Shown one piece after another: positions 18,411 through 45,596 of a DNA stretch of 46,701 nt. Source of the stretch: a virus (taxonomy: Duplodnaviria; Heunggongvirae; Uroviricota; Caudoviricetes); IMG/VR virus record IMGVR_UViG_3300045988_115807, one strand, 5' to 3'. A model generated the notes under the pieces. That model made no database searches, was not told where the DNA came from, and saw nothing but the letters and a program-made list of their open reading frames with translations. The position numbers and the translations under genes were made by a program. Each line of letters starts with the position of its first letter. Within the stretch, counting starts at the first letter, position 1.

Positions 18411-19376
18411 TTAATTATCAGTAGATTGTTCCTCTAGTAACAACTCAATTCTGCTTAGTATTTCTTTAGATATTTTTCGGCTATCAATTTTTATAGTTAC
18501 AAAATTACCTTTATATCTAGCCGTGATCCCTTCCCCATATTTTTTCTCGTCTTTTGTTTTTTCCTCGTCGCCAACCAGAACAGAGTCAGATAATATTTGT
18601 ATAATCCGTGAAGCTTCTAAATCCTCGCCGTTTTTTTTAATTGCCAGAAGATGATGAGCAGCATTGCTCATGGCAGCCATGTTTTTTTTGTAGACCTTAA
18701 ACAAAGAATCTCCAGCACGAGCTGACAGTTCTCCTGGATGATTGAAGATAGCTAATATATCTTTTGGTAGACCAGCTGTATTAATACAGCGAGTGATAAT
18801 ATTTCTGTCTATATTTTCAGCCTCGGCTAATGCTTTAACGTTACCATCAAAGTCATTTAGCTTGCGTAAGTATCTCTTTCCTCTTTCGTATGCACTAATA
18901 GGCCTATAATCGTTACCAATTTGGGATAACCAATGCATCTGTTCATCGTCGAGATCACCTATTAAGACGCGATAGTCACATCCTGTTAATATCGCTGCTT
19001 TTCTTCTACGTGAGCCGTCAGCGACTTCAACGACTCCAGACACTTTTCTGGCGAAAGCTGGATTTTGTTGTCCAGACGTTAGAAAAGATGGGATTAAATC
19101 GGCTAGAGAGGATTCATTTAATAAATCTTGATCGCGTTCATTACCTAGCCATACCATTGTTGCCATTTCAACTTTATCTGCGGGAATTGTCTCTAACTTA
19201 AAGTTAACATTACGTCCGCATACTGGCAAAGTTATGCTGTTACCGGTTAATGAACTCAGTTGACGTTTTAAATCACCAACCATAGGTGATACGGGCTGAT
19301 GTTCAGGGGCATGATGATTATTACTCATAATGCGATTAATATCTGGAGCATTTTTTAGAAGAGAGCGCTGTTTCAT
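18411..19376 (-). CDS. sopB: partition protein SopB (ParB-like centromere-binding protein)
   Basis: ...ITLPVCGRNVNFKLE...WLGNERDQDLLNE...LIPSFLTSGQQNPAFARKVSGVVEVADGSRRRKAA...GNDYRPISAYERGKRY... closely parallels F-plasmid SopB from memory. Confidence 0.9.
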   Translation of the reverse strand: MKQRSLLKNAPDINRIMSNNHHAPEHQPVSPMVGDLKRQLSSLTGNSITLPVCGRNVNFKLETIPADKVEMATMVWLGNERDQDLLNESSLADLIPSFLTSGQQNPAFARKVSGVVEVADGSRRRKAAILTGCDYRVLIGDLDDEQMHWLSQIGNDYRPISAYERGKRYLRKLNDFDGNVKALAEAENIDRNIITRCINTAGLPKDILAIFNHPGELSARAGDSLFKVYKKNMAAMSNAAHHLLAIKKNGEDLEASRIIQILSDSVLVGDEEKTKDEKKYGEGITARYKGNFVTIKIDSRKISKEILSRIELLLEEQSTDN

Positions 19377-20542
19377 TATTCGTTCTCCCAGCGAGGTTTT
19401 ATTAGATCATCAAAAATTTCTCGGCAAACAGGGTCCCATATAGAAACAGCATTTCTCCATGCATTCAATGTTGAACGTTGGTTTGCTGCTTGTTCAAATA
19501 CTGTTCTCATTTTTATCTGGCCTTTACCTACTTCATCGGTAACGCGTACAACCTGACGTAATACCATTGATCCCCATGTATTTCTTATTTGTTCTTCCAT
19601 CCATCGTGATTGATTCCCTGTAGTGAGACTATATTTAGTCAGAAGTAAGCGAACGGTTGGCTCAAATCCACCTAGGTCAACGCTTTCCAATAGATCGAGA
19701 AGCATTGTGAAAAACTGTAGAACAGAAGCGTAATCAAATAATTCTGCAGGTGTAGCAACAACAATAACGTCAGCGGCACAAACAACGTTAATGGTTCCTG
19801 TACCGAGGTTCGGAGCACTATCTATAACGATAACATCGTAGTTATCCCAAACTGATTCAATAGCTGCGCGCAGCATAAGGTGTGGAGGATGAGGCAATTT
19901 ACCCTGAGCATGATATTGCATGAGATCTGTTTCTATACGATGTAAAGCTAGGCAGCTAGGGATAATGTCTAGCCCAGGCCAACATGTTGGCTTTATAGCA
20001 TATTCAGCGTTATCGCGTTCTCCTAAGTAAAATGGCAGTAAAGTATCCTCGGCATGGATATGTAAATCAGGAACATAACCGTGATACATAGAGGCCGTGC
20101 CTTGAGGATCGTTACCTTCAACCAAAAGAACACGATGACCTTGTAATGCTAACCATTGAGCTTGATGTACCGCAGACGATGTTTTATAAACGCCGCCTTT
20201 GTGTGACATAACGGCAAGCACAACAGGGTTTTTATCTTGTGGTCGTTGGTTTGGGTTGCCAAAAACTGCTCGCATACTGTTGATTTGATCTATGGTATAA
20301 CCAGCACGACGTTCAATTCTTCCTCTCATTTCAAAGTCAGGTGCAGGTAAACGCCCGCTCTTCTCAGCATCTCTAATTGCTTGAGGAGTTACACCAATTA
20401 AATCTGCTACTTCAGTTATACCCCATCGGCGGGTGATACGCCGAGCTTCAGGACTATCATCACCGAATTGAGCGATAGCAATTGCTTGGGTCATTTCTTG
20501 ACCTCTCGTAACACAATCTTGCAATAACTTTTTCAAAGACAT
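19376..20542 (-). CDS. sopA: partition ATPase SopA (ParA, Walker-type)
   Basis: ...AIAIAQFGDDSPEARRITRRW...HKGGVYKTS...LLVEGNDPQGTASMYHGYVPDLHIHAEDTLLPFYLGE...IDSAPNLG... near-colinear with F SopA from memory. Confidence 0.95.
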   Translation of the reverse strand: MSLKKLLQDCVTRGQEMTQAIAIAQFGDDSPEARRITRRWGITEVADLIGVTPQAIRDAEKSGRLPAPDFEMRGRIERRAGYTIDQINSMRAVFGNPNQRPQDKNPVVLAVMSHKGGVYKTSSAVHQAQWLALQGHRVLLVEGNDPQGTASMYHGYVPDLHIHAEDTLLPFYLGERDNAEYAIKPTCWPGLDIIPSCLALHRIETDLMQYHAQGKLPHPPHLMLRAAIESVWDNYDVIVIDSAPNLGTGTINVVCAADVIVVATPAELFDYASVLQFFTMLLDLLESVDLGGFEPTVRLLLTKYSLTTGNQSRWMEEQIRNTWGSMVLRQVVRVTDEVGKGQIKMRTVFEQAANQRSTLNAWRNAVSIWDPVCREIFDDLIKPRWENE

Positions 20543-20825: not shown

Positions 20826-21160
20826 CAATACAAGAACATAAACAGAGAACATAAAAATAAAGTAATGACACAAACACAATAAAGAACATAAATAAAGAAT
20901 TAGAACCAATGCTAAATAAAGCAGTACACAAAATGAGAACATTACACCAAATGAGAACATTAATCAAGAACATAACGAAACATAATTCCCCATTATACGC
21001 GCGTATAATGGGGAATTATGTGCTGATTTTCAGAACAAAGTCAAGGAACAAATTTTAACGTTCCGATATTGTGTTTTTATTTATTATCCGTTATTGTGTT
21101 CTGTTAGTTTGTGGCTAAGTTAACGCGTTATTAGTTATCTTATTCTCAAATTGTGTTACG
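20826..21160. repeat. AT-rich tos-like region: AGAACA(T) direct repeats left of, and inverted TGTTCT/TTGTGTT repeats right of, the telomere palindrome
   Basis: CAAGAACATA, GAGAACATA, AAGAACATAAAT, GAGAACATTA (x2), CAAGAACATAACG on the left; CAGAACAAAG, TATTGTGTT (x2), TGTGTTCTG on the right. Confidence 0.6.
20980..21021. other. telRL-like telomere resolution site (42-bp perfect palindrome, telO core)
   Basis: ACATAATTCCCCATTATACGCGCGTATAATGGGGAATTATGT is perfectly self-complementary; centre between 21000 and 21001; central CCATTATACGCGCGTATAATGG matches my recollection of the N15 telO core; 171 bp upstream of telN. Confidence 0.85.
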
Positions 21161-29600: not shown

Positions 29601-30629
29601 GCCGGTATTCCCTTTTCCTTCTGTGGCTGATTTCCGGTCATTATCCAGTGCGCAGGTGATTTTTGCCGCCGGGTACATGTTTACCAGTTGTTCCACAACA
29701 TGAACCATGTTATTAGCGGATACAGCGACAACCACAGCGTCAAAGCGTTTATCTTTTTTCGTGGCAAGCCAGATGGATGCACCAGTAGCAAAACCTTCTG
29801 TAACAGCGATGTTTTGCGCCCCTTTTAGCTCACCGATAACAAAGCAGGCACCGACGAAATCGCCGCTGGTTACGGCGCTGGTCTGGTATTTTCCACCTTG
29901 TTTGTCGATTCGCTGCCAACCCACAATACGACCATCGTAACGACCGTCCAGGTGAGCCAGAGGGATAGCCATATACGTGGTTGGCCCCCTGCTCCATTTT
30001 GCGCTGTCGTGACTGGTCACGCGACGCACATCACACGAATTAAAAACGTCACGAATACCTTTTTTAATCGCATATGGCCATGAGCCGTCTTCTGCAGGAG
30101 CATGTTCCCACGCGCTGTGGAATGCCAGCCATCCCAGCAAACGTTCATGGTCCATTTGGTTGTTTTTCAGGTCATTAATTCGTTTTTGTTCTTCACGGCG
30201 ACGACGTGCTTCGGCCTGACGTTCTATTCTTGCCCGTTCTTCTTCCGGTTGTGCGACCACGGTCGCATTATTCCGTTGTTGCTCACGGCGATATTCAGAA
30301 AACAGGAAGGAGAAACCGCTCCATGAGCCAGCATCGCTGCCTTTATGGACGAAGTTAATGAACGGGTAATCAATCCCTTTGCTGTGTTCCAGCCGGGAGT
30401 AAATTTCTACGCGTCCTTTGAGGCTCTTTTCGAGAGCTTCTGGAGATGTTTTATTGTATGAAGAGTAACGCTCAACACCCCCGCGAGGGTTGAGTTGGAT
30501 GTTGTCGGAACAGGCAGACCAGTTGATACCAGCCATCTGTGCCAGCTCGGTTAGTTCATCCCGTGCTGCTTCAATTAGCGAGAACGGATCGCTGCCAAAG
30601 CGATCCGCATAGAAATCGTTTAATGTCAT
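26634..30629 (-). CDS. repA: replication protein RepA (primase-helicase, N15 RepA-like)
   Basis: 1331-aa ORF; contains Walker-A-like GMGSGKST; size and position next to cB match N15 repA, whose 3' part is reported to contain the replication origin. Confidence 0.9.
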   Translation of the reverse strand: MTLNDFYADRFGSDPFSLIEAARDELTELAQMAGINWSACSDNIQLNPRGGVERYSSYNKTSPEALEKSLKGRVEIYSRLEHSKGIDYPFINFVHKGSDAGSWSGFSFLFSEYRREQQRNNATVVAQPEEERARIERQAEARRRREEQKRINDLKNNQMDHERLLGWLAFHSAWEHAPAEDGSWPYAIKKGIRDVFNSCDVRRVTSHDSAKWSRGPTTYMAIPLAHLDGRYDGRIVGWQRIDKQGGKYQTSAVTSGDFVGACFVIGELKGAQNIAVTEGFATGASIWLATKKDKRFDAVVVAVSANNMVHVVEQLVNMYPAAKITCALDNDRKSATEGKGNTGLRTGYEILSKFNDVRCVYPTFEDDPQMECSDFNDLHKLRGLRETARQLFATANRLKTGTDLLSLTLNRLKTIKRDNRRTFAKELLRAVDIGMLTCPVPNSPSDLFNMFCIVLREMGLENIYRATVKDHIARRLNKKCRIAQAPRSFSERITDPNKRPQHITYKRFETSVMTDDVLKYVQSLQGIVIVRAGMGSGKSTGLLRPLMHSSERGISVAHRVSLIGGLWEMMTEGKGVKTDILHYQDPGYQEMAPYASKLTICINSIVKNCWQPLMRQHDYFGFDEATQGLRAVLSGRAMENPVAVFNTLIDALARTEQHPIMVDADANDLLVDLAELAMKRREELGLPAWLQIHVIELPVDVRNRETGEPIRVFYTEKDRIMTEVVKAVSDGEKIMLATDSSTFAEDVTATLRMHFPGKKFLCVNQKNKPEPEVEAFTNQPKKMVKKYDGLIYSPSISSGVSIEQKHFDRHFGMFCGEVVPSDAVQMLRRDRTAKEFIIGFDKARAKRETDPQKIERAFAQALLATAGMNGELTDVVFDGDRISMGVANTDFTRMKIKAAAIEATARNDYASNMICIMHSDGYKVSPLATDYAANDIGKDLRKEARDIVWEQTLDLHLNTETPQESEREELLKKRALTLEEQAKLVRWDIENELKLPVEEGTLKFYFDGARDKVRRYETMLLDEVTARRYDREEAAINFTYTYRQAGQWQYFVVTAMTREQADDVFKTKFPGIIDHKVKATPTVEVGARGFYALKSATLRQYFIDCGINPETMTGEATQERLKFARDNLMTAERRDLLNNVLHIGGFMTPKGKPKVPEALFKNICDSLGLKTGKRRGRDGDKRPTLRFVEPESAAFMLDILVQRQKDGLTLKTRKAEKTAIEMDRDLDLNIYMDDKTRSTNEQVQNAPHSVISEALAVLPVAVPESWAMSALSSEELATMSSWSSASIAMTFASLYLTEFMDHLSSNELRRLREYITGNSSCSYEEQGAFYG
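30250..30266. repeat. sopC-like centromere palindrome (copy within the repA 5' region, 17/18 match)
   Basis: GTGCGACCACGGTCGCA(T); same dyad as the other four copies. Confidence 0.55.
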
Positions 30630-30682
30630 TTTTTAGCCATTCCATGCGAATTATGTTTTTTCGGGTTGAAAAAATCCGCAGG

Positions 30683-30739
30683 AGCAGCCACAATAAACGC
30701 ATCTTGAATTGACGGAATCCGTCGCGTTACTGTGGCTGC
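30683..30739. promoter_or_regulatory. 13-bp inverted repeat pair in the repA promoter region
   Basis: GCAGCCACAATAA ...30 bp... TTACTGTGGCTGC (one mismatch), enclosing TTGAATTGACGG. Confidence 0.35.
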
Positions 30740-30752
30740 TTCCTGAAAAGGA

Positions 30753-30780
30753 CCCGAGTTTGCCGACTCGGGTTTTTTTT
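30753..30780 (+). terminator. strong hairpin plus T8 between repA and cB
   Basis: CCCGAGTTTGCCGACTCGGG followed by TTTTTTTT on the plus strand; on the minus strand the same hairpin is followed by only TTTT. Confidence 0.55.
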
Positions 30781-30874
30781 CGTCTTTTTTCTGCTGCTGT
30801 AACCTGAGTCAACCCACAGAACATATGCTCTGCATTAAACCAGATTTACAGCAAACAATAAACCCCGTATTAAG

Positions 30875-31471
30875 TCATCTACCCTCAACCATGAATGATT
30901 TGATCGTTCCGACTATTTGGTGAACAAATTCAAGATCGCTTTTCCTGAAGATGGCGCGTTGTGAATTTGTTCCGTCCAGATAGTAATTTTCATCATCAAA
31001 ACGGGCCAGGCGCTGGATGGTGATATTTCCTGCAGTATCACGAACCAGAACATCCTCGCCGGGAACCAGTTCCAGCGCAGAATCGACCAGGAGAAAATCG
31101 CCTGGCTGATAGTTTCCCTGCGCCAGATTGCTGATAGTTAACGCATAAACAGTATTGCGCTGGCTGATGAATGGCAGGAATCGCTCAGTATTTGGAACCT
31201 GTCCTGGCTTCCACTCTTCATCAGGTCCACTTTCAGTTGTGCCAATAACAGGAATGCGATCAGGGTCATATTCTGTCCCATACAGCACCCAATGCACTGG
31301 CTTGCGTAAGCACTTAGCCAGGGCAATACCTATCTCCAGTGACGGCATTACGTCGCCACGTTCTAAGTTTTGGACGCCTGCAATAGAGATATCGACAGCC
31401 TCAGCAACTTCTCGCAACGTCAGCTTCATCTCTAAACGGCGTGCTTTCAGTCGTTCGCCTCGTGTTTTCAT
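30875..31471 (-). CDS. cB: prophage repressor CB (HTH N-terminus, CI/LexA-like C-terminal domain)
   Basis: MKTRGERLKARRLEMKLTLREVAEAVDISIAGVQNLERGDVMPS... HTH_XRE-type N-terminus; divergent from cro; position as N15 cB. Confidence 0.85.
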   Translation of the reverse strand: MKTRGERLKARRLEMKLTLREVAEAVDISIAGVQNLERGDVMPSLEIGIALAKCLRKPVHWVLYGTEYDPDRIPVIGTTESGPDEEWKPGQVPNTERFLPFISQRNTVYALTISNLAQGNYQPGDFLLVDSALELVPGEDVLVRDTAGNITIQRLARFDDENYYLDGTNSQRAIFRKSDLEFVHQIVGTIKSFMVEGR

Positions 31472-31493
31472 AGCTTAATCATAAATGATCTTC

Positions 31494-31535
31494 TTATAGC
31501 TGGCTATAAAATTTATTTATTATAGCTGGCTTTAA
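31494..31535. promoter_or_regulatory. candidate CB operators in the cB-cro divergent promoter region
   Basis: TTATAGCTGGCTATAA (31494-31509) and TTATAGCTGGCTTTAA (31520-31535), 26 bp apart; a TATAAT at 31551-31556 lies 6 nt before the second cro ATG. Confidence 0.5.
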
Positions 31536-31784
31536 ATGAGATTTATTGCTTATAATAACCGCATGAAACCAGAAGAACTTATTCGCCACTTTGGCAGTGT
31601 AGAAAAAGCAGCGGCTGGGGTAGGTGTAACACCCGGTGCTGTTTACCAATGGTTAACCGCTGGAGAGATTCCTTCATTGCGGCAAAGTGATATTGAAGTT
31701 CGTACTGCTTACAAGCTGAAGAGTGACTTTACAACTCGGCGGGTAAAGCAGTCGATTAAGGAGAGCCGTAAGCGTGGAGCTTGA
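31536..31784 (+). CDS. cro: Cro-like HTH regulator
   Basis: Small HTH protein (…GSVEKAAAGVGVTPGAVYQWL…) divergent from cB; true start may be the ATG at 31563 (MKPEEL). Confidence 0.7.
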   Translation: MRFIAYNNRMKPEELIRHFGSVEKAAAGVGVTPGAVYQWLTAGEIPSLRQSDIEVRTAYKLKSDFTTRRVKQSIKESRKRGA

Positions 31785-32484
31785 GTATATACGCAGCTGC
31801 GTATCCACGGCATTGGCTGATATTCATTATCGCCAGCGTGGCATCCTAGAGGTCCAGCTTGAGCAGATGCGTCTAGGCAGATCAGGACGCTTTAACAATA
31901 AACCAGTCCGGTCAATCAGTGTAGGTGATGATAACTCATACGAAGTGTCCGTTCCTGCTGAGCCGGTTAGATTCCACCAGGGGAAAACATTTAAACAATC
32001 ATCAATGTTGCTCACTGATATTGATTTTCAGAGCGCCAGCTGGCGCAGGGCTATTGGTCAGTTGAATAACGAGGAATCAGCCTGGCTTTATTATTGCTAC
32101 GGATGCAAGCCTGATTACAACAATGATGTGATTGTTTGTCAGTGGTTATGGCTTGATTTTCTGGTTGCTCATTCGGGGGGCGGCTTTAAAAAAATGAAGG
32201 CCTCCACGAAAAAAGCCATGCGGAAATTGATTTATTACGCGGCACAGCAGGTTAAATCAGAACTTACGTGTGCTGAGGCAGTTGATGAGAGAGAACAGGA
32301 CAGGCATCTGAGTTTTCTACTGAATATATCTATTGATAGCTGGAGACAAGATTATAAAGAACGCTGGCTTTTAATTAAGTCGCGATGTCTGAGCTTAAAT
32401 CGAACTGCATTATTAAATGCGGCGGAGAAGCGCAGTGAAATCATCAAACGCCATCGGGCAGGAAGTGCCATTCTGCCTTTGTAA
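31774..32484 (+). CDS. putative late-gene antiterminator (Q-like)
   Basis: 236-aa ORF immediately after cro, as in N15 (cB-cro-Q); Cys-containing YYCYGCKPD segment; assignment is by position, not strong sequence recall. Confidence 0.4.
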   Translation: MELEYIRSCVSTALADIHYRQRGILEVQLEQMRLGRSGRFNNKPVRSISVGDDNSYEVSVPAEPVRFHQGKTFKQSSMLLTDIDFQSASWRRAIGQLNNEESAWLYYCYGCKPDYNNDVIVCQWLWLDFLVAHSGGGFKKMKASTKKAMRKLIYYAAQQVKSELTCAEAVDEREQDRHLSFLLNISIDSWRQDYKERWLLIKSRCLSLNRTALLNAAEKRSEIIKRHRAGSAILPL

Positions 32485-32494
32485 ACAAGTTATG

Positions 32495-32737
32495 TTCAGG
32501 AAACCGTCGAAGCCAGAATTAAGGTATTCGGGGGTAAGAAATGAATATGTTATCTGGTGTCCAACTTGTGGTTACAGGACACGACCAGATAGTAATAAGC
32601 AGTCTGTAATTGCCGATTGGTATTTATCAAATCAGCCAGGTAATAAGCATATAGAAAATCTTTGGATTAAGCGTTACTTGGAAATCAGAGAGGGTGCGAC
32701 CGTGGTCGCACAAGAAAATGAAAATAACGCCATTTAA
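32495..32737 (+). CDS. small hypothetical protein with zinc-ribbon-like motif
   Basis: MFRKPSKPELRYSGVRNEYVIWCPTCGYRTRPDS...; internal start of ORF 32417-32737; no clear RBS. Confidence 0.3.
   Translation, partial: FRKPSKPELRYSGVRNEYVIWCPTCGYRTRPDSNKQSVIADWYLSNQPGNKHIENLWIKRYLEIREGATVVAQENENNAI
32694..32711. repeat. sopC-like centromere palindrome
   Basis: GTGCGACCGTGGTCGCAC: 8-bp inverted arms with a 2-bp spacer. Confidence 0.65.
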
Positions 32738-32921
32738 GCAGGGGCCGATGACGCATGATGAAGCAGAGCGTCTTTCAGATACTTATCGGCGGCGTGGTAA
32801 GAAAGTTCTGGTTGTTCGTTCTGATTTTTTAGGTGATGGATATTGCGTTTATGTTCATTTACCTGAATCAGAAAGAACGCCAAAACCATCCAGAACATAT
32901 CAACAGAAAATTTGGGTATAG
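32718..32921 (+). CDS. small hypothetical protein (68 aa)
   Basis: MKITPFKQGPMTHDEAERLSDTYRRRGKKVLVVRSDFLGDGYCVYVHLPE...; weak translation signals. Confidence 0.3.
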   Translation: MKITPFKQGPMTHDEAERLSDTYRRRGKKVLVVRSDFLGDGYCVYVHLPESERTPKPSRTYQQKIWV

Positions 32922-32944
32922 ATAAACGTTGAGGAGAATTATTC

Positions 32945-33544
32945 GTGACTAATCAGATTATTTACGACAGGAAACGGTCTGATGTAATGATTGACCTTGA
33001 AACAATGGGTACTAACACATGTGCTCCAATTGTTTCTATCGGGGCAGTGTTTTTTTCTCCAGAAAGTGAGGAATTAGGTCCTACTTTTTATGTACCAGTG
33101 AATCTCAGAAGCTCGATGTTGAATGGTGGTGTCGCCGATGGTGATACCATTTTATGGTGGTTGAAACAGAGCAAGGAAGCCAGAGCCGCAATTTGTACTA
33201 ATGATGCCCTTGATATTAAGGATGCACTTTTTGAATTATCACACTTTATTACTTGCCATGCATGTAATTTAAAAAAATTGAAAGTATGGGGAAATGGAGC
33301 AACGTTCGATAATGTAATTTTACGCGGTGCTTATGAGCGCGTTGGCTTAGCCTGTCCGTGGGAATATTTTAATGATCAGGATGTTCGAACAATCGTTAAC
33401 CTTGGTCAGTTTATTGGTTTTAATCCTAAAAAAGATATGCCATTTGATGGCGAACGACACAATGCCCTGGCTGATGCTATTCATCAGGCTAAATATGTAT
33501 CAGCAATTTTCTCCCGTCTTGTAAAAGGGCAAGGAGAATCGTAA
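32945..33544 (+). CDS. 3'-5' exonuclease, DEDDh (DnaQ/RNase T-like) family
   Basis: GTG start with GAGGAG RBS; motifs MIDLETMG (Exo I), WGNGATFD (Exo II), HNALADA (Exo III). Confidence 0.8.
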   Translation: MTNQIIYDRKRSDVMIDLETMGTNTCAPIVSIGAVFFSPESEELGPTFYVPVNLRSSMLNGGVADGDTILWWLKQSKEARAAICTNDALDIKDALFELSHFITCHACNLKKLKVWGNGATFDNVILRGAYERVGLACPWEYFNDQDVRTIVNLGQFIGFNPKKDMPFDGERHNALADAIHQAKYVSAIFSRLVKGQGES

Positions 33545-33963
33545 TGGCAAAGGCTTTTACACCAGAACAGAGGGAAGAACTGAATAAACAAATTGTGGAA
33601 CTCGTGCGCCTGAATGGACGAGGAACGGTTAGGCAACTTGCGGATGAAACTGGTATTAGCCGGTGTGCTGTTAGTCGTTTATCAAGAGAGCTTGCTGCCA
33701 GTGGTGATTTGTATATCTCTGGCTCCGGGATATTTCTGTCTGCACAAGCACGCAAGGACTGGCAAAACGCCCGTAAAAAACTATCAAGAGTAAAGCCGAA
33801 GACATCGGTAGTGGTTGATCCAGACCTTATCTGGTCATTACCTGACGGAGAAATACGTCGTTACGACAGGCGCTTGAACATGATTTGTCACGATTGCCGG
33901 AAAAGTGAAGTTATGCAGCGTGTGCTGGCTTTTTATCAGGGAAATTTTCAGGAGGTGGCGTAG
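33544..33963 (+). CDS. hypothetical DNA-binding protein (winged-helix-like)
   Basis: ATG overlaps the upstream stop; ...RGTVRQLADETGISRCAVSRLSRELAASGDLY... HTH-like segment. Confidence 0.55.
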   Translation: MAKAFTPEQREELNKQIVELVRLNGRGTVRQLADETGISRCAVSRLSRELAASGDLYISGSGIFLSAQARKDWQNARKKLSRVKPKTSVVVDPDLIWSLPDGEIRRYDRRLNMICHDCRKSEVMQRVLAFYQGNFQEVA

Positions 33964-34253
33964 TGAATATCGACACCACGATAACGATCGATACGGCCAT
34001 AAATATCGGTCTGGCACTTCTCGGTTGGTTTTACATCATGTTCAGTGCGGGGAAGTGGGCGGCCTCTGTTTTTCTAAAGCAGTGGGGAAAGCACCGCAAA
34101 CAGGAAAGACGCCAGAAAGTGTTAGAGGCGTTCTATGACGCATTTGAACTTAGCCGCATTGAGCCAGGCACAACAGCCAAGATAGCGACAAAAGGCGACC
34201 TGATGATAGTGATGTTCCGACAGGAGAGAGCAGAGAAAGGGGAATCAGCATGA
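33963..34253 (+). CDS. small membrane protein
   Basis: GTG start; hydrophobic N-terminus INIGLALLGWFYIMF. Confidence 0.45.
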   Translation: MNIDTTITIDTAINIGLALLGWFYIMFSAGKWAASVFLKQWGKHRKQERRQKVLEAFYDAFELSRIEPGTTAKIATKGDLMIVMFRQERAEKGESA

Positions 34254-34828
34254 AATTTTCCAAATTTTCTGAGTTGGTGAATCGTATTTTGTCCAACAAC
34301 CACAGCCATCGTCGCGATATGGATGTAACAATCGTTATTCATTCGCCTGGCAGCATTGGTTCAACACCTTCAGTTGAGGTTCAGTCAATTCACGCTGGTT
34401 TTGATTGGGATTCCGGGAAAGTGCTTATTTTCCCATCACAGCCACTGACCACGCTAACACCAGAACAGATTACTGATATCACTGATAGTGTGCGCAAAGG
34501 TCAGTCCTGGCACGCATATCAGGAATACAAAAAGCATAAAGAGCAGTTGGAAAAATTGTCTATTGAGCTGGAAGCTGCAAGAAAGCGAATTTCAGAACAG
34601 GGAAATAAAGTAATACCAGTGTCAGCTGAATTGCCACCTGCAAATGAAAGTGTTCTGTTATTTGATGCTAACGGAGAAGGCTGGCTGATTGGCTGGCGTT
34701 CTCTCTGGTACACCTGGGGACAAAAGGAAACCGGAGAATGGCAGTGGACATTTCAGGTCGGGGATCTTGAAAACGTCAATATCACTCATTGGGCAGTAAT
34801 GCCGAAAGCACCGGAGGCTGGAGCATAA
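34250..34828 (+). CDS. hypothetical protein with DUF551-like Trp-rich C-terminus
   Basis: C-terminal ...GEGWLIGWRSLWYTWGQKETGEWQWTFQVGDLENVNITHWAVMPKAPE resembles the DUF551 hallmark ending. Confidence 0.6.
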   Translation: MKFSKFSELVNRILSNNHSHRRDMDVTIVIHSPGSIGSTPSVEVQSIHAGFDWDSGKVLIFPSQPLTTLTPEQITDITDSVRKGQSWHAYQEYKKHKEQLEKLSIELEAARKRISEQGNKVIPVSAELPPANESVLLFDANGEGWLIGWRSLWYTWGQKETGEWQWTFQVGDLENVNITHWAVMPKAPEAGA

Positions 34829-35385
34829 TGATCACGTTTACCGACAAAGAACTGATTAAAGAAATCAAAGAGCGAATCGGTAGCCTGGACGTTCGAGACA
34901 ATATTGAGCGCCGTGCTTATGAAATTGCACTGGCATCGCTGGAAGCAGATCCAGTTGCTTATATTTTCAAACATCCGGCTGGAAAATTATTCTGGGCTTT
35001 AACGGATGAAAGCAATAAAGAGCAATCGGACGTTATTCCTGTTTATGCCGCCCCTCCAGTGCCAGTAGTACCTGAAGAAAAACCAATGCCTAACCCTCTT
35101 AAAATGTACGCGGTTGATGCTGTTGCCGCTATTGCAGAGGTGAGAGGCTGGAACGCCTGTCGTGCCGCTATGCTTCAGAGTCAAGGTAATTGCATTAAGG
35201 ATGGTTGGATAAGCTGTAGTGAGCAAATGCCAGATGATGGTCGTATTCAGTTTTCTGTTTCACTTCCAGCAGCATGTGGTGGAGATAAATATTTTATTGA
35301 TGGTGTATTTCAACCTTTGAGATATGAGCGTGACTGTGAAAAAGCGGTTGTGGCCGCTGGCGGTGTAGTTAATTGGGTTAAGTAA
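34828..35385 (+). CDS. hypothetical protein (185 aa)
   Basis: ATG overlapping the previous stop (TAATG); start of ORF 34789-35385 moved to the first ATG. Confidence 0.55.
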   Translation: MITFTDKELIKEIKERIGSLDVRDNIERRAYEIALASLEADPVAYIFKHPAGKLFWALTDESNKEQSDVIPVYAAPPVPVVPEEKPMPNPLKMYAVDAVAAIAEVRGWNACRAAMLQSQGNCIKDGWISCSEQMPDDGRIQFSVSLPAACGGDKYFIDGVFQPLRYERDCEKAVVAAGGVVNWVK

Positions 35386-35400
35386 TTTTTAGGAGGATTT

Positions 35401-35727
35401 ATGGCGCTGACACCGGCAGAACGGCAAAGAAGACGCAGGGAACGGTTGAAGAAGGAAGGAACATCAAGACGTGACTGGATTCTGGAACCTGACGAGTTAC
35501 GTATGTTGGGGGAAATTTGTGTATTGCGTAGACCAGGGCGAGTTCCATATTCAGAGAACGAAGTCATCGGACTGCTGATCAGGAAAAACTATAAGGAGTT
35601 GCAGAAACAGCTATCTACTACTTGTCCGCGATGTGGTCAAAAAATGCCTGTTTCAGAATGCATTTTTGATGGTGAAGGCTCATGCCACCTTACAACCACG
35701 AGGCTGAAACTTGCGCTCAAAGTGTGA
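35401..35727 (+). CDS. hypothetical protein with basic N-terminus and CxxC motif
   Basis: GGAGGA RBS; MALTPAERQRRRRERLKKEG...CPRCGQ... Confidence 0.55.
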   Translation: MALTPAERQRRRRERLKKEGTSRRDWILEPDELRMLGEICVLRRPGRVPYSENEVIGLLIRKNYKELQKQLSTTCPRCGQKMPVSECIFDGEGSCHLTTTRLKLALKV

Positions 35728-35745
35728 CTGGTCACGGAGGGATAA

Positions 35746-35901
35746 ATGGACAAAAAGGCATTGCTTTTTGAAATGATACGAAAACGGAGCGAAAAGAGCT
35801 TTTCTGATGGTGGTGATGGGCTTTTGAAAGTGGTTGGGCGAGGCGTAGGAAGGGAACATAAGTATCAGACTACAAAGATATTTAACCAGTTAATCCATTG
35901 A
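35746..35901 (+). CDS. small ORF (51 aa)
   Basis: GGAGGG RBS 6 nt upstream; MDKKALLFEMIRKRSEKSFSDGGDG...; below ORF-track cutoff. Confidence 0.3.
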   Translation: MDKKALLFEMIRKRSEKSFSDGGDGLLKVVGRGVGREHKYQTTKIFNQLIH

Positions 35902-35927
35902 AAGTTGGCTATAAAATTTGAGTTTTA

Positions 35928-35947
35928 CCCTGTAATTTTATACAGTA
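35928..35947. promoter_or_regulatory. LexA (SOS) box
   Basis: CCCTGTAATTTTATACAGTA fits the CTGT-N8-ACAG consensus (taCTGTatatatatACAGta), with an AT-rich spacer and flanking TA. Confidence 0.65.
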
Positions 35948-35969
35948 TCAAATAACCTTTTTTAATTAA

Positions 35970-36188
35970 ATGGTATTAGATTCAATGACTGAAGCACCTG
36001 TATCAACTCTTGAAGAACTCGGATCAAACCTAAAAGACATCGACGCCGTTTTGGATCTGGTTAGCGTTGCTCTGGCTTCTCCAGAAGCCAGCTTGCATCT
36101 TGGCGAGATTTCACGACTTGTTAGTATGTCGCGGGAGATTGCTCAGAATTGCCAACAAGTTATTGCTGTTGAGTGTTTGCATCATTGA
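35970..36188 (+). CDS. small protein downstream of the LexA box; candidate SOS-inducible antirepressor (AntC-like by position)
   Basis: 72-aa acidic ORF; the promoter region upstream carries the LexA box and a TTGGCTATAAAATTT half-site also present in the cB-cro operator. Confidence 0.45.
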   Translation: MVLDSMTEAPVSTLEELGSNLKDIDAVLDLVSVALASPEASLHLGEISRLVSMSREIAQNCQQVIAVECLHH

Positions 36189-36231
36189 TACACACCCCGC
36201 CCTTCTGGACGGGGTAGCGAAAAGGGTCTAA

Positions 36232-36519
36232 TCAATAGACGGCATTAATATTAATCGTTGCACCGCATGCTTGGGCATATTTTGATAAAGTTTTCATGCT
36301 TGCCCCTAAAGGATTGCTTTCCAGGCGGCTGATAGCTGACGGGCGCAATCCCATTCGTTCAGCCAGAGCTGACTTCGTTAAACCTGCTCTTTCCCTCATT
36401 TCGTATAACATTTCGACCATCTCCAGCTCTTTATCGGCCTCTTCATATCCTTTGATGGCTTCTGGAGTGTTGAGAAGTTTTTCTTTTACTTCGTTAAACG
36501 GGATGCCTTTCGCTTTCAT
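36232..36519 (-). CDS. HTH (XRE-family) antitoxin, HigA-like
   Basis: ...RERAGLTKSALAERMGLRPSAISRLESN... HTH; start overlaps the toxin stop by 1 nt (TGATG). Confidence 0.7.
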   Translation of the reverse strand: MKAKGIPFNEVKEKLLNTPEAIKGYEEADKELEMVEMLYEMRERAGLTKSALAERMGLRPSAISRLESNPLGASMKTLSKYAQACGATININAVY

Positions 36520-36830
36520 CAGTTCATCTCCTTCAGGCGAGTTCTGGCGATTTCGATAGCCTTCACCGGTGTTTTCTGTGTCTTTTTTACAAATGCATGC
36601 AATAGATAAATTTCGTTACCAGTCGCGTAGGCGTACAGCGTTCTTGCGATGTTTTTATCCCCTACTCGTAGTTCAAAAAGCCCTCCACCTATTACACGGC
36701 TATGGGGCATCTTCAGTTTGTTGCCTTCCTTCTCCAGTCGCTCAATTAATCTGGTCATGCGACCTCGCAAATCATCTGGTAGTTCAAGCAGTTCATCCAG
36801 TGCTGCAGGGTGGGTTATCACGTTAAACAT
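36519..36830 (-). CDS. RelE/ParE-superfamily toxin, HigB/Gp49-like
   Basis: 103 aa; toxin-first operon order with a downstream HTH antitoxin, typical of HigBA / Gp49-like modules. Confidence 0.7.
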   Translation of the reverse strand: MFNVITHPAALDELLELPDDLRGRMTRLIERLEKEGNKLKMPHSRVIGGGLFELRVGDKNIARTLYAYATGNEIYLLHAFVKKTQKTPVKAIEIARTRLKEMN

Positions 36831-36888
36831 ATTATAGCCTCCATAGCCATAAAATACACCAAAACAAGAAAAAAGCGCAAATTAAAAA

Positions 36889-36906
36889 TTTCACTAAAAA
36901 GTGAAA
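36889..36906. promoter_or_regulatory. inverted repeat in the toxin-antitoxin promoter region (candidate operator)
   Basis: TTTCAC-TAAAAA-GTGAAA, about 60 bp upstream of the toxin start. Confidence 0.35.
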
Positions 36907-36995
36907 AATAACACTGGATGTGTTCGTTTGGCAGAGTTACAGTTCGTGTCATTGAGGGGCAATAACCCACTAACTATATGAATTTGGAGGATATT

Positions 36996-37217
36996 ATGAA
37001 TTATCAAGGTAACGAAAAAATGCGCGACGACGTTGCGGAGATAGCTAACGAACTGTATGAGTTGTGGCAGAAGGTTGAACGTTTCGAAAAGGAATATGGT
37101 TTCAACAGTACCAACCTGGCAGACCGACTGGCTGGTCGCTTAGTTGGGACTATGGGGCCAAAACTGGCTGAGTTGAACCGCTTTATGGCTGATGTTGATT
37201 TCCAGTTTCAAGATTGA
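36996..37217 (+). CDS. hypothetical protein (73 aa)
   Basis: GGAGGA RBS; MNYQGNEKMRDDVAEIANELYELWQKVERFEKEYG... Confidence 0.5.
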   Translation: MNYQGNEKMRDDVAEIANELYELWQKVERFEKEYGFNSTNLADRLAGRLVGTMGPKLAELNRFMADVDFQFQD

Positions 37218-37230
37218 TTAGAGAGGCGTT

Positions 37231-37458
37231 ATGAATATTAATGAAATTCGTGGAAATATGACTGAAGCGGCCCTGAGTGTGGAATGTGTTATGCGTGGAT
37301 ACCCACGCATTTCCCTGAAAGAGTTAAGCGAAGCCTGTTTTTTGAGTCAAGCTGCCGTTGAATTTATCATCGAACAGATGATCTGTTTTGGGGTTGCAAA
37401 GCGTAGCGGGTCTGGTCGATATTCTTTGACCGATGAATATAAGCAGGCAACTTTCTAA
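37231..37458 (+). CDS. hypothetical protein (75 aa)
   Basis: GAGAGG RBS; ORF followed by a centromere palindrome and a terminator. Confidence 0.5.
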   Translation: MNINEIRGNMTEAALSVECVMRGYPRISLKELSEACFLSQAAVEFIIEQMICFGVAKRSGSGRYSLTDEYKQATF

Positions 37459-37463
37459 AAACT

Positions 37464-37481
37464 GTGCGACCACGGTCGCAC
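37464..37481. repeat. sopC-like centromere palindrome
   Basis: GTGCGACCACGGTCGCAC (extends to CTGTGCGACCACGGTCGCACAG). Confidence 0.65.
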
Positions 37482-37566
37482 AGCACAAAAACGAAAAAGC
37501 TTGGCAAAATTACGGTTTTTAGTTATTGTTTTGTTAAGTTGGGTTTTTTGTACCCAACAGCCAACA

Positions 37567-37592
37567 AGCCGCCTTTATGGCGGTTTTTTTGT
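37567..37592 (+). terminator. rho-independent terminator
   Basis: AGCCGCCTTTATGGCGGTT followed by TTTTTTG. Confidence 0.6.
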
Positions 37593-37725
37593 GCCTGAAA
37601 AGTGGGCGCAGGACAAGTTGCAGCTTGTCCTGCGGTCAACCCATGCCAGAGCTATAGGCTGAACCTAAAGCCCACCCGCGATGCGCATCGCCGGGTTAGC
37701 TTACCCAGGCAAAAAAATAATAGCT

Positions 37726-38802
37726 ATGTTCAAAACCACTAATATTCATGGCGCGCAACTCGTTTGCGCAGATTCTCTGCAATTTATCAAAACCATCCCT
37801 GATAACTCGGTCAATTTGATTGCAACAGACCCACCATACTTCGGCGTAAAGGCTAACGCATGGGATAACCAGTGGGATAGCGATGCTGACTTTTTGGGGT
37901 GGATTGATGAATTTTTGGCAGAATTTTGGCGGATATTGGCCCCTAATGGCAGCCTGTATATGTTTACCGGCTCTCGCCTTGCGTCAAAAATTGAATTATT
38001 AACTCGCGACCGTTTCAATGTTCTGAACCATATCATTTGGGCTAAACCCAGTGGTATGTGGCGCGGTTGTCATAAAGAAAGTTTAAGGGCTTATTTTCCT
38101 GCCACTGAAAGAATATTATTTGCAGAGCATTACGGCGCGTCAGGTTATGCTAAAGGTCAGTCAGGTTATGCTTCAAAATGTGCAGATTTAAGAAAAAATA
38201 TTTTTTCTCCACTAATTGATGCTTTTTCGCTGGCTCGCCGTCAGTTAGATATATCAGCCGCAGACATTAATTCAGCAACAGGAAAGCAGATGTGTTCGCA
38301 CTGGTTTTCTTATTCGCAGTGGCGGCTTCCATCATTAAGTGATTTTAATAAACTATGCGAATTATTTCGCAGGAAGGCAGATTCACTCGGTGTCCCGTGT
38401 CCATATCCTTTTAATGTTGATTATTCAGAACATGAAAAGCGTTATAGCGATCTGAAATTGCGTTATGAGGAAGTAAAGAAGCAGTATGATGATTTGAAGG
38501 CTCAGTATGAAAATTTGCGCCGCCCATTTCATGTTACTGCTGATGTACCTTATACCGATGTATGGGAGTTTCCTCCTGTGCAATATTATCCTGGCAAGCA
38601 CCCATGTGAAAAACCTGCAGCGATGATGGAACATATTATAAAAAGTAGTTCCCGCCCCGGAGATATCGTTGCCGATTTCTTTATGGGATCAGGCTCTACT
38701 ATTAAAGCCGCGCTGAAGTTAGGTCGTCAGGCAATCGGTATTGAGATTGAGGGTGAACGTTATCTTCAGACAGTTGATGAAGTGAAAAAGTTATTTGAGT
38801 AA
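37726..38802 (+). CDS. DNA methyltransferase (DPPY motif; N6-adenine or N4-cytosine, beta-class)
   Basis: LIATDPPYF (motif IV) near the N-terminus and FFMGSGST (motif I) near the C-terminus; start could instead be 37681. Confidence 0.8.
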   Translation: MFKTTNIHGAQLVCADSLQFIKTIPDNSVNLIATDPPYFGVKANAWDNQWDSDADFLGWIDEFLAEFWRILAPNGSLYMFTGSRLASKIELLTRDRFNVLNHIIWAKPSGMWRGCHKESLRAYFPATERILFAEHYGASGYAKGQSGYASKCADLRKNIFSPLIDAFSLARRQLDISAADINSATGKQMCSHWFSYSQWRLPSLSDFNKLCELFRRKADSLGVPCPYPFNVDYSEHEKRYSDLKLRYEEVKKQYDDLKAQYENLRRPFHVTADVPYTDVWEFPPVQYYPGKHPCEKPAAMMEHIIKSSSRPGDIVADFFMGSGSTIKAALKLGRQAIGIEIEGERYLQTVDEVKKLFE

Positions 38803-38897
38803 CTGAAGAATATATTCCCCTGCCGTTTTTGATGGGGTTATTTCTCGCCGTATAGTTTCCAAGCCGAAACCTCAGCAACTATTGCGAGGTAAGAGAT

Positions 38898-39170
38898 ATG
38901 AAGATGGATGAACGATACAGCAGCGCATCTTATGGTAGTGCTGGTCTTACTGCGTTCTTTGCCAGCCTGTCATTGCAGGATTGGGGCTTCATTATCGGTG
39001 TCGCGTTCAGCATTATCCTCGGTGTACTTACATACCGGCTCAATAAACGCGAGCAGATGAAGCGCACGAAGATATTGCAGGACATATTGGATAAAACTGA
39101 TGCCAATAATATTTCCGCCACGGCGATGGTTATTGGTGAATTGGGAAAGAGAGCACCGAAGGAAATATGA
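38898..39170 (+). CDS. holin (dual-start MKM motif)
   Basis: MKMDERY... dual-start holin/antiholin pattern; hydrophobic segments; immediately upstream of the endolysin. Confidence 0.7.
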
Positions 39171-39667
39171 TGCAGTCATCATTACGCAAAGCTGTCGCAA
39201 CTGCTATTGGTGGCGGGGCTATTGCCATAGCATCTGTGCTCATCTCTGGTCCGAGCGGCAACGATGGTCTGGAAGGTGTGAGACATAACCCCTACAAAGA
39301 CATCGTTGGTGTATGGACTGTATGTTACGGGCATACAGGAAAAGACATTATGCTCGGTAAAACGTATACCGAAGCAGAATGCAAAGCTCTCCTGAATAAA
39401 GACCTTGCTACTGTCGCCAGACAAATTAACCCGTACATCAAAGTCGATATACCGGAAACAACGCGTGGTGCTCTTTACTCGTTCGTTTACAACGTGGGTG
39501 CAGGCAATTTCAGAACATCGACACTTCTTCGCAAAATCAACCAGGGCGATATCAAAGGTGCATGTGATCAACTACGTCGCTGGACATATGCTGGCGGCAA
39601 GCAATGGAAAGGGCTGATGACTCGCCGTGAGATTGAGCGTGAAGTCTGTTTGTGGGGGCAGCAATGA
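39167..39667 (+). CDS. SAR endolysin (T4-type lysozyme, GH24)
   Basis: N-terminal signal-anchor-release-like segment [20 protein letters not shown] followed by lysozyme-like domain (…VCYGHTG…); start overlaps the holin stop. Confidence 0.85.
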
Positions 39668-40131
39668 GCAGAGTAACCGCAATTATTTCCGCACTGGTTA
39701 TCTGCATCATCGTCTGCCTGTCGTGGGCTGTTAATCATTACCGTGATAACGCCATCGCCTACAAAGAACAGCGTGATAAAAAAGTCAGTGAGCTGAAGCA
39801 GGCGACCGCCACCATCGCTGACATGCAGCAGCGTCAGCGTGATGTTGCTGCGCTCGATGCAAAATACACGAAGGAGTTGGCTGATGCGAAAGCTGAAAAT
39901 GATGCTCTTCGGCGCAAGCTTGATAATGGTGGTCGGGTGCTCGTCAAAGGAAAATGCTCTGTGCCATCCTCAGCCGAAACCTCCAGCGCCTCCGGCATGG
40001 GCAATGATGCCACCGTCGAACTCTCTCCAGTTGCTGGACGAAACGTTCTCGGTATCCGGGACGGAATCATCAGAGACCAGACAGCACTGAGAACGCTTCA
40101 GGAATACATCAAGACGCAATGCCCGAATTAA
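39664..40131 (+). CDS. i-spanin Rz
   Basis: [24 protein letters not shown]... N-terminal TM anchor followed by coiled-coil; position after endolysin. Confidence 0.8.
39884..40090 (+). CDS. o-spanin Rz1 (lipoprotein embedded in the +1 frame of Rz)
   Basis: [22 protein letters not shown]... lipobox VVGC followed by Pro-rich [16 protein letters not shown], like lambda Rz1. Confidence 0.7.
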
Positions 40132-40172
40132 TCCCTCTGTATCAAAAACGAACTCAATTTGTTGGATAGTGA

Positions 40173-40484
40173 ATGAAAATTTATATTGCCGGGCCAATGA
40201 CTGGATATGAGAACTTTAATCGTGACGCCTTTAATAAAGAGGCAGATCGTTTGTCACGACATGGTCACTCTGTCTTGAATCCAGCCACTTTGCCTAATGG
40301 TCTGACACAACGTGAATACATGGATATTTGCTTTGCAATGCTTCGTTGTGCTGATGCTATTTTGATGCTTCCTGGCTGGAAAGCGTCTGCTGGAGCAACT
40401 GCTGAGTATCATTACGCATACAAGATGGAGATGCCGGTATTCACTACGCTGAATTACCCGCCAGCTTGTTCCTCTGTAGCATAA
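40173..40484 (+). CDS. DUF4406 / nucleoside 2-deoxyribosyltransferase-like protein
   Basis: MKIYIAGPMTGYENFNRDAFNKEADRLSRHGHSVLNPA... N-terminal IYIAGPMTG motif is characteristic of this Rossmann-like family. Confidence 0.65.
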   Translation: MKIYIAGPMTGYENFNRDAFNKEADRLSRHGHSVLNPATLPNGLTQREYMDICFAMLRCADAILMLPGWKASAGATAEYHYAYKMEMPVFTTLNYPPACSSVA

Positions 40485-40503
40485 AAATCTCTTTGTTTCT
40501 CGT

Positions 40504-40521
40504 GTGCGACCGTGGTCGCAC
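40504..40521. repeat. sopC-like centromere palindrome
   Basis: GTGCGACCGTGGTCGCAC. Confidence 0.65.
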
Positions 40522-40722
40522 ATTAAATACCGCGCTGCATCGTCGCCGTATTTCCGCATTAACCATGACCGTAGCCCGACGGGGAACTCCTCTGCGCGAG
40601 TGTGCGGAAATAATCAAAAACGATGCACACCGGGTTTTTACCGCGCTAATGATTCGCGGGTTTGTCCCTCATGCTCGCCAGTCCTGTGCGAGGGTGGAAG
40701 AAACAGGGCATGTATTCAGGAG

Positions 40723-40740
40723 CGTGCGACCGTGGTCGCA
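40723..40740. repeat. sopC-like centromere palindrome
   Basis: GTGCGACCGTGGTCGCAC. Confidence 0.65.
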
Positions 40741-40764
40741 CGGTATCTTTGTCAGGAGGTTTTG

Positions 40765-41079
40765 ATGAAAGAGTTGCAAAAAATTAATTCAATAATGGAA
40801 AGGTTAAGTGCTCTTGAGCGTAAGCTGGACGATTGTGGAAAGCTGTGTGTTGAAAAGCAAAATGAGCTTTACCGGGAATTTTTTACAATCGTAAGTGAGC
40901 TGATGCCAATTGTTAATAACTGCCTGATGACATCCAGATTTTTTAATGTCGATGCTACTACATCCAGAAAATTTTCTGTGAAAATTCAAGAAAGGGTTTC
41001 TGGTAGTGTGACAAGAGAGATGGCTGAACAGTTGGTGGCAATGAGCAATAAAACAAAAAGAAAAAAGCATTGCTTGTAA
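40765..41079 (+). CDS. hypothetical protein (104 aa)
   Basis: AGGAGGT RBS 5 nt upstream; MKELQKINSIMERLSALERKLDDCGKL...; the upstream part of ORF 40504-41079 is judged non-coding. Confidence 0.5.
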   Translation: MKELQKINSIMERLSALERKLDDCGKLCVEKQNELYREFFTIVSELMPIVNNCLMTSRFFNVDATTSRKFSVKIQERVSGSVTREMAEQLVAMSNKTKRKKHCL

Positions 41080-41129
41080 CAGCAAATCAGCTTTCAGGGC
41101 GCGTTGACTTTCAGGTGTTGCGGCATGCA

Positions 41130-41369
41130 GATGATAATTATTATCATTGCGGGTCCTTTCCAGTGATCCGACAGGTTACGGGGCGGAAGGCGCGCGGGTT
41201 TTCGCTATTTATGAAAATTTTCCGGTTTAAGGCGTTTCCGTTCTTCTTCTCCGTAACTTAATGTTTTTATTTAAAACACCCCCTGAAAAGAAAGGAAACG
41301 ACAGGTGCTGAAAACAGGCCTTTTGGCCTCTGTCGTTTCCTTTCTCTGTTTTTGTCCGTGGAATGAACA
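41130..41369 (+). other. cos region (cosQ-cosN-cosB); predicted 12-nt cohesive end GGGCGGAAGGCG at 41181-41192
   Basis: Sequence aligns base-for-base with my recollection of the lambda cos junction (…GATCCGACAGGTTACG | GGGCGG… CGCGGGTTTTCGCTATTTATGAAAATTTTCCGG…, R3/R2/R1-like GTTTCC repeats) except within the cohesive-end dodecamer and a few cosB positions. Confidence 0.8.

Positions 41370-41915: not shown

Positions 41916-45596
<3,681 letters not shown>

Follow-up and report, generated by a model that had tools for sequence, protein, structure and literature searches.

A 46,701-nt stretch of viral DNA (the window, meaning the whole stretch that was analysed) carries near-identical 18-bp dyads scattered among its genes. 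The question they raise is whether they form a centromere for plasmid partition or are instead operators of another regulator, a repeat common among hosts, or hairpins in transcripts. The first-pass annotation had described five dispersed copies and likened them to the core of the F-plasmid sopC centromere. The whole-element pattern search that it proposed was run with the pattern GTGCGACC-NN-GGTCGCAC and up to 2 mismatches, and returned exactly five matches, four perfect and one with a single mismatch. The chance expectation from 100 shuffles is 0.03, and none of the 100 shuffles gave five matches, so the presence of five dispersed dyads is borne out. Relaxing the search to 3 mismatches gained no further dyads in the window. 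Three of the starts first given (32694, 37464 and 40504) were correct, while two were off by one, 30250 and 40723 becoming 30251 and 40724.

An N15-like element with its own sop genes

The window represents an N15-like (Ravinvirus) phage-plasmid, complete and circularly permuted, with sopA/sopB, a protelomerase gene, telRL, repA, and a structural arm resembling that of lambda. Its structural genes are about 97–99% identical to those of lambdoid prophages; the early region is only ~75% identical to N15. The genes and sites of partition, telomere resolution, and replication are as follows:

18411..19376, minus strand: sopB, encoding a ParB-family centromere-binding protein with a SopB helix-turn-helix domain, 73% identity to N15 SopB
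19376..20542, minus strand: sopA, encoding a Walker-type partition ATPase, 93% identity to N15 SopA, Pfam AAA_31/CbiA
20980..21021, unstranded: telRL palindrome, the telomere resolution site, centre at 21000/21001
21192-23093: protelomerase gene, next to telRL
26634-30629, minus strand: repA open reading frame, 1331 aa

SopB matches the Pfam domain SoPB_HTH (E = 7e-25) and the F SopB structures 3MKY, 3MKW, and 3MKZ, with the ELSAR(A/S)GD stretch aligned and conserved. Cognate SopA and SopB are thus encoded on the same replicon as the dyads, as expected of a dispersed centromere of the N15 type, and the combination of protelomerase, telRL, and repA is that of a linear plasmid-prophage. In prophage coordinates all five sites lie 9–20 kb from the telN-side telomere, and sopAB lies at the other end, 24–35 kb from the five sites.

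In the F plasmid, sopC consists of 43-bp repeats arrayed in tandem immediately 3' of sopB. The window and F share the SopB family and a 7-2-7 dyad architecture, and the proposed likeness to the F core holds in that 14 of 16 bases are shared with TGGGACCNNGGTCCCA; arm position 3 is C here and G in F, giving one difference per arm. No tandem sopC-like array is present beside sopAB, which upholds the earlier description of the dyads as dispersed rather than arrayed there. With the array absent and each dyad 2 bases off the F core, we rejected a centromere of the F sopC type. N15 sites are not used by F SopB (PMC7205306).

Among the closest counterparts is N15, whose centromere sites IR1–IR4 read GTGCGACC-NN-GGTCGCAC (PMC7205306 Table 4). 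On an array of such sites (4xIR), N15 SopB gathers into foci (PMC7205306), and N15 is cited for its dispersed centromere-like sites (PMC3235114). The dyad arms in the window match those of IR1–IR4 base for base, apart from one mismatch at site 1, whereas the central dinucleotides differ. In N15 the motif occurs at 33479 inside repA, at 35930 following Q, at 41124 ahead of the late promoter, and at 45561. Both elements have a protelomerase, telRL, and dispersed sites far from sopAB, and both place sites in repA, after Q, and 19–20 bp before the late-promoter -35 element; there are five sites here and four in N15. Given a motif shared exactly with the N15 sites, orthologous positions for sites 1–4, cognate sop genes on the element, and an enrichment far above chance, we conclude with a probability of roughly 0.9 that the five dyads constitute the dispersed SopB centromere of a linear, N15-like E. 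coli plasmid-prophage.

The sites in their contexts and in related phages

The five sites and their neighbouring features are as follows:

30251..30268, unstranded: site 1, orthologue of N15 IR1, GTGCGACCACGGTCGCAT with one mismatch, within repA
32694..32711, unstranded: site 2, a perfect dyad orthologous to N15 IR2, 210 bp 3' of the Q antiterminator gene
37464..37481, unstranded: site 3, a perfect dyad orthologous to N15 IR3, 19 bp ahead of the late-promoter -35
37501..37529, plus strand: late-promoter-like TTGGCA-17-TATTGT, homologous to the annotated N15 late promoter
37566-37586: terminator after the late promoter
40173-40484: DUF4406 gene
40504..40521, unstranded: site 4, perfect dyad, 20 bp 3' of the DUF4406 gene
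40532..40713, plus strand: the island, a conserved lambdoid non-coding element that is a candidate for a structured RNA on the strand of the late transcript
40724..40741, unstranded: site 5, an extra perfect dyad in a terminator-like context

Sites 1–3 are positional orthologues of N15 IR1–IR3 with flanks that align. Site 1 lies inside the 1331-aa repA frame, as the first-pass annotation had it, and is spanned by codons 121–127, of which codons 122–126 encode A-T-V-V-A. The flanks of site 2 are homologous to those of the N15 site at 35930 and of the phiKO2 site at 40345 (‘putative plasmid partitioning site’). The 19–20 bp spacing between site 3 and the -35 element recurs in N15 and phiKO2. Site 4, downstream of the DUF4406 gene, occupies the place of the fourth site in phiKO2 and PY54. 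N15 IR4 is its analogue in position, but the flanks of the two are non-homologous because the N15 cytosine methylase gene is inserted between DUF4406 and IR4. Site 5 has no counterpart in N15 or phiKO2, and a 104-aa open reading frame (40765-41079) begins 24 bp downstream of it.

Klebsiella phage phiKO2 carries four sites of identical motif, all predicted and annotated as ‘putative plasmid partitioning site’, including, as in the window, the GGTCGCAT variant of the 18-bp sequence within repA. Their four relative positions are those seen here, one being directly 3' of a DUF4406 (nucleoside 2-deoxyribosyltransferase-like) gene; the fifth site and the lambdoid island are absent. Dispersed dyads also occur in Yersinia phage PY54 (spyAB), likewise a linear plasmid-prophage; among them, one occupies the repA codons that hold site 1 here and another follows the DUF4406 gene. 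However, the PY54 dyads are of the F type (TGGGACC-NN-GGTCCCA, eight perfect copies) and its SopB homologue is only 56% identical. The repA site therefore sits at identical codons in the window, N15, phiKO2, and PY54, and in PY54 the F-type site changes the peptide from ATVVA to GTTVP, indicating that the site is conserved there and not the protein sequence.

Exact single copies of the motif in many unrelated genomes and viral contigs might suggest that the dyads serve another phage regulator as operators, or belong to a repeat widespread in hosts or mobile DNA that has no link to partition. A scan of the exact motif over 596 Gb of species-representative genomes gave at least 120 loci. Some 140 chance matches are expected in a sample of this size (596e9/4^16), with which the single matches are consistent; those among the matches listed fall in high-GC taxa (median GC 67%). 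Multi-copy loci, by contrast, carry N15-like repA, Q, and methylase genes, and among the matches listed the only identifiable element with the motif in multiple copies was an N15-like 46-kb contig. A Stellaceae MAG contig, from an unrelated taxon, also has a pair of motifs among the matches listed. The host-repeat reading was rejected since, in the scans of viral and genome collections and with that two-site contig aside, the multi-copy loci listed are N15-like and the rest are lone matches at the level expected by chance. In the N15 annotation, the operators of the CB repressor lie at places other than the dyads. Together, the operator and repeat explanations appear extremely improbable.

Hairpins, the island, and integrated lambdoid prophages

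Another explanation sees the dyads, or sites 4 and 5 if not all of them, as late-region RNA hairpins or intrinsic terminators instead of centromere sites bound by a protein. Site 5 scored as terminator-like, with an 8-bp stem followed by GTATCTTTGT, and the N15 record labels IR4 a ‘putative rho-indep. transcription terminator’. In the integrating lambdoid phage 2B8 the site-5 position reads GTGCAACCGTGGTTGCAC, with two symmetric changes that leave the hairpin intact, and the module of site 4, island, and site 5 is maintained in prophages lacking sop genes. Five terminators, however, would have no need to share a single 16-bp sequence. Site 1 is in a coding region, site 3 is upstream of a promoter, and site 4 lacks a T-run 3' of the dyad. 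In some lambdoid contexts the palindrome decays asymmetrically (GTGTGACTGTGGTCGCAA), which argues against hairpin selection in those contexts, and the dyad sequence is the same as that of the N15 SopB sites (PMC7205306). We consider the hairpin explanation very unlikely and retain the dispersed centromere as the preferred reading; site 5 may have both terminator and SopB-site roles.

Sites 4 and 5 are spaced 202 bp apart. The first-pass annotation had them bracketing a 200-bp non-coding island and took the placement of the dyads as a hint that partition-protein binding may also influence replication or late-gene expression. The position of the island between two dyads and its non-coding nature were confirmed: every frame is interrupted in at least one homologue, and a 1-bp indel between homologues argues that the island is non-coding, so that a coding sequence was rejected. 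The connection to partition did not stand, since the island is a conserved lambdoid element that also occurs in sop-less prophages. Homologues in >400 lambdoid phage records led us to reject a sop-specific regulatory region. An Rfam scan of 30000-41500 (E <= 1) for known RNA families gave four weak sub-threshold hits, none of them in the island or at the dyads. The whole module, 100% identical, is present in an integrated lambdoid prophage without SopA, SopB, TelN, or RepA. Retention of sites 4 and 5 in such a prophage means that the motif alone is no proof of partition function at these two sites.

Proposed mechanism and use in annotation

For the dispersed centromere, we infer from the N15 experiments that SopB would bind the dyads and that the dyads would stabilise the plasmid. 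Ravin and Lane reportedly described the N15 Sop system and its centromere sites in 1999, with SopB binding and SopAB-dependent stabilisation, and Grigoriev and Lobocka are said to have treated the same system in 2001. A SopB dimer would recognise each 16–18-bp palindrome via its helix-turn-helix domain and nucleate a partition complex; the SopA ATPase would move these SopB complexes such that plasmid copies reach both daughter cells.

Because its 19–20-bp spacing to the late-promoter -35 is conserved, site 3 probably has a second role in linking SopB binding to late transcription, a link reported for N15. Work by Ravin, Rech and Lane from 2008 is said to connect N15 partition sites with late-gene expression, and the earlier suggestion that the dyads may influence late genes would be in line with it. 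Site 5 is an added copy that would have arisen in a late-region module comprising the DUF4406 gene, site 4, the lambdoid element, and site 5, a module that is swapped with integrating lambdoid phages.

Two further roles are conceivable, and we hold them to be very unlikely. Either two SopB sites around the island, just upstream of cos, could insulate or gate a possibly structured late-transcript element and late read-through, or orphan modules in integrated prophages could act as SopB-titrating decoys that destabilise competing N15-like plasmid-prophages. If the decoy role were true, centromere-based incompatibility would be a phage–phage weapon.

A dispersed SopB-site system has already been worked out experimentally in phage N15, and the finding here is correct but ordinary. 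Its main use is in annotation, where the five dyads can be entered as N15-type SopB centromere sites for E. coli phage-plasmids of this group; the records of the close relatives PhiR46_1 and YDC107_1 carry no such site features. YDC107_1 (CP025712.1) is only about 98% identical to the window, and in its annotation the telN-repA arm is duplicated in inverted orientation. Three points, all minor, are new: the number of sites varies within the family (4, 5, or 8), the repA-embedded site stays at the same codons even when specificity switches, and the late-gene module carries centromere sites into lambdoid prophages that integrate, which leaves those sites orphaned.

The replicon and its five dyads

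The window shares 98% identity with the Escherichia phages PhiR46_1 and YDC107_1 (genus Ravinvirus), and its repA-cB-Q region, which includes the Q antiterminator gene, is about 75% identical to those of N15 and phiKO2. One related contig spans the junction from the window's end to its start with an alignment gap of just 9 bp, indicating that the window holds a whole genome of ~46.7 kb, circularly permuted.

Features of the window, with sites 1-5 as located by pattern search
18411-19376, minus strand: SopB, 73% identical to N15 SopB, with a Pfam SoPB_HTH domain
19376-20542, minus strand: SopA, 93% identical to N15 SopA
20980-21021 (centre 21000/21001): telRL site, a 42-bp perfect palindrome
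21192-23093: protelomerase
26634-30629, minus strand: RepA, 1331 aa
30251-30268: site 1, GTGCGACCACGGTCGCAT, one mismatch
32694-32711: site 2, perfect
37464-37481: site 3, perfect
40504-40521: site 4, perfect, 20 bp after the DUF4406 gene (40173-40484)
40724-40741: site 5, perfect
41181-41192: lambda-like cos

Crystal structures of F SopB are homologous to the SopB encoded here, and the conserved ELSAR(A/S)GD stretch aligns between them. Directly left of the telRL palindrome lies an 18-bp tandem repeat, TACACAAAATGAGAACAT (2.1 copies, 20925-20962), which may be a protelomerase-flanking repeat. The YDC107_1 record (CP025712.1) is annotated with an inverted duplication of the telN-repA arm, in which a protelomerase region and repA each occur twice, in opposite orientation; sopAB is not annotated. 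The duplication could be an assembly run through the hairpin telomere.

The first-pass annotation had described five near-identical dyads, and its coordinates were right to within one base. A pattern search allowing up to two mismatches returned exactly five matches to GTGCGACCNNGGTCGCAC in the window, against a mean of 0.03 in dinucleotide-preserving shuffles, and at three mismatches no extra site appeared in the window. Site 1 lies within repA at RepA codons 122-126, encoding A-T-V-V-A, while site 3 is followed after 19-20 bp by the late-promoter -35 element (TTGGCA at 37501). In prophage coordinates the five sites are 9.3, 11.7, 16.5, 19.5, and 19.7 kb from the telN-side telomere, with sopBA at 44-46 kb at the opposite end of the molecule.

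Correspondence with known centromere sites

The analysis supports reading the five dyads as an N15-type dispersed Sop centromere in an N15 relative, with one extra site, much as had been proposed from the sequence at first sight. The natural centromere sites of N15, with flanks, are GTGCGACCACGGTCGCAC (IR1 and IR4), GTGCGACCTCGGTCGCAC (IR2), and GTGCGACCATGGTCGCAC (IR3) (PMC7205306 Table 4); foci form on a 4xIR array with N15 SopB, and F SopB does not use the N15 sites (PMC7205306). The dyad arms of IR1-IR4 are identical to those of the window sites, and pairwise alignments show the flanks of IR1, IR2, and IR3 to be homologous to those of sites 1, 2, and 3.

Positions of the motif in N15
33479: inside gene 37 (repA)
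35930: 183 bp past Q
41124: 20 bp ahead of the annotated late-promoter -35
45561: after gene 58

In the phiKO2 GenBank record, four copies of the same 18-mer carry the annotation "putative plasmid partitioning site": one within repA, one following Q, one 19 bp ahead of the putative late-promoter -35, and one 17 bp beyond gp58, a DUF4406-like gene. Because site 4 likewise follows its DUF4406 gene, it is the positional equivalent of this fourth site, which leaves site 5 as the extra copy. The suggested likeness to the F sopC core is real: in each arm, every window site has a single-base difference from TGGGACCNNGGTCCCA. In PY54, eight perfect F-type dyads (TGGGACC-NN-GGTCCCA) are scattered along the genome, one of them at 31240-31255. 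Site number thus varies within the family, from four (N15, phiKO2) through five (the window) to eight (PY54), making five unremarkable.

The site embedded in repA occupies the same codons, 122-126, and encodes A-T-V-V-A in the window, N15, and phiKO2. PY54 has an F-type dyad at exactly these codons with the peptide G-T-T-V-P, so the DNA site is kept here at the expense of the protein sequence. Such retention would be expected if the dyad were a functional SopB target co-evolving with SopB specificity.

That the dyads are instead a host repeat, or sites for an unrelated regulator, is not supported by their distribution. The exact motif occurs in many IMG/VR contigs, where multi-site loci carry N15-like repA, cB, Q, methylase, and DUF4406 genes. 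A scan of bacterial genomes (one per species, 596 Gb) found at least 120 loci, and among the matches listed almost all were single and in unrelated high-GC bacteria (median GC 67%). By our arithmetic, ~140 chance matches are expected in 596 Gb for a palindrome with 16 specified bases, consistent with these single occurrences. Among the matches listed, just one identifiable element, an N15-like Pseudocitrobacter contig of 46 kb, had several sites at one locus, and a Stellaceae MAG contig had two. Site 5 and N15 IR4 may plausibly have a secondary role as terminators or hairpins, but such a role cannot account for the recurrence of one 16-bp sequence at five positions, one of them within a gene and another ahead of a promoter.

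If the system works as its homologues in N15 and F do, each dyad would be bound by SopB dimers, partition complexes would assemble on the bound dyads, and SopA would segregate them; on this basis we infer that these sites bind SopB and stabilize this element. The spacing from site 3 to the late-promoter -35 is 19-20 bp in the window, N15, and phiKO2. Ravin, Rech & Lane reportedly proposed in 2008 that late-gene expression is aided by the Sop system of N15, and the kept spacing fits that claim.

The island between sites 4 and 5

Sites 4 and 5 are separated by 202 bp containing a core of ~180 bp (40532-40713, plus strand). The first-pass annotation described a 200-bp non-coding island bracketed by two sites. 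The core is indeed non-coding, since every reading frame is interrupted in at least one copy and copies differ by a 1-bp indel. It matches >400 lambdoid phage records at 80-99% identity, including Stx phages, mEp460, Lambda_4C10, and 2B8, between lysis/accessory genes and cos or terminase.

The core had no Rfam match. RNAalifold of the late-transcript strand predicts one long and two short hairpins, with several G-U pairs that the other strand would not tolerate. In a set of 35 distinct copies, pairing is kept in 98.9% of cells and five pairs show compensatory changes, in an alignment of close relatives representing few independent events. We consider the core a candidate for an undescribed, conserved structured RNA element of lambdoid late regions, unrelated to sop. 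In a single strand of 40500-40745, the identical palindromes of sites 4 and 5 can pair together, and in the predicted minimum-free-energy fold a 19-bp stem closes the whole island. Close relatives have a second, diverged copy of the element (92% identity; PhiR46_1 19604-19775 and relative L007 6003-6190) directly upstream of cos, where it has no dyads; both this copy and the ~1.4 kb preceding it are missing from the window.

At its right edge the core gives way, across a mosaic junction, to many different sequences, a subset of which carry the dyad, exact in some and decayed (GTGTGACTGTGGTCGCAA) in others. Integrase-carrying lambdoid phage 2B8 (NC_049952.1, 48654-48671) has GTGCAACCGTGGTTGCAC at the site-5 position, ~90 bp before cosN. 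Its two substitutions are symmetric and keep the dyad, which could reflect chance, a hairpin, or another binding specificity.

Orphan sites in integrated prophages

The full stretch from the DUF4406 end through site 4, the island, and site 5 was present in 26 of 5426 complete E. coli genomes at 96-100% identity; 11 of the copies are chromosomal and ~15 are on 36-75-kb plasmid records. E. coli MS1657 (NZ_CP135957.1, 1965360-2005720; locus L361) carries it in a classical integrated lambdoid prophage adjoining sbcB, with integrase, N, cI/cro/cII, nin genes, and Q. Its sites (locus positions 20065 and 20285) and island are 100% identical to those of the window, and the prophage is 97-99% identical to it from Rz through cos and over the whole head-tail arm. 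SopA, SopB, TelN, and RepA are all absent from this prophage.

Presence in a sop-less integrated prophage indicates that sites 4 and 5 belong to a late-region module that N15-like phage-plasmids exchange with integrating lambdoid phages. N15, phiKO2, and PY54 all share the DUF4406-plus-dyad arrangement, so the lambdoid prophages probably acquired the module from the phage-plasmid lineage. We regard it as very improbable that SopB gates the bracketed lambdoid element or that the orphan copies act as centromere decoys; most simply, dyads in lambdoid prophages are passengers, orphan centromere sites.
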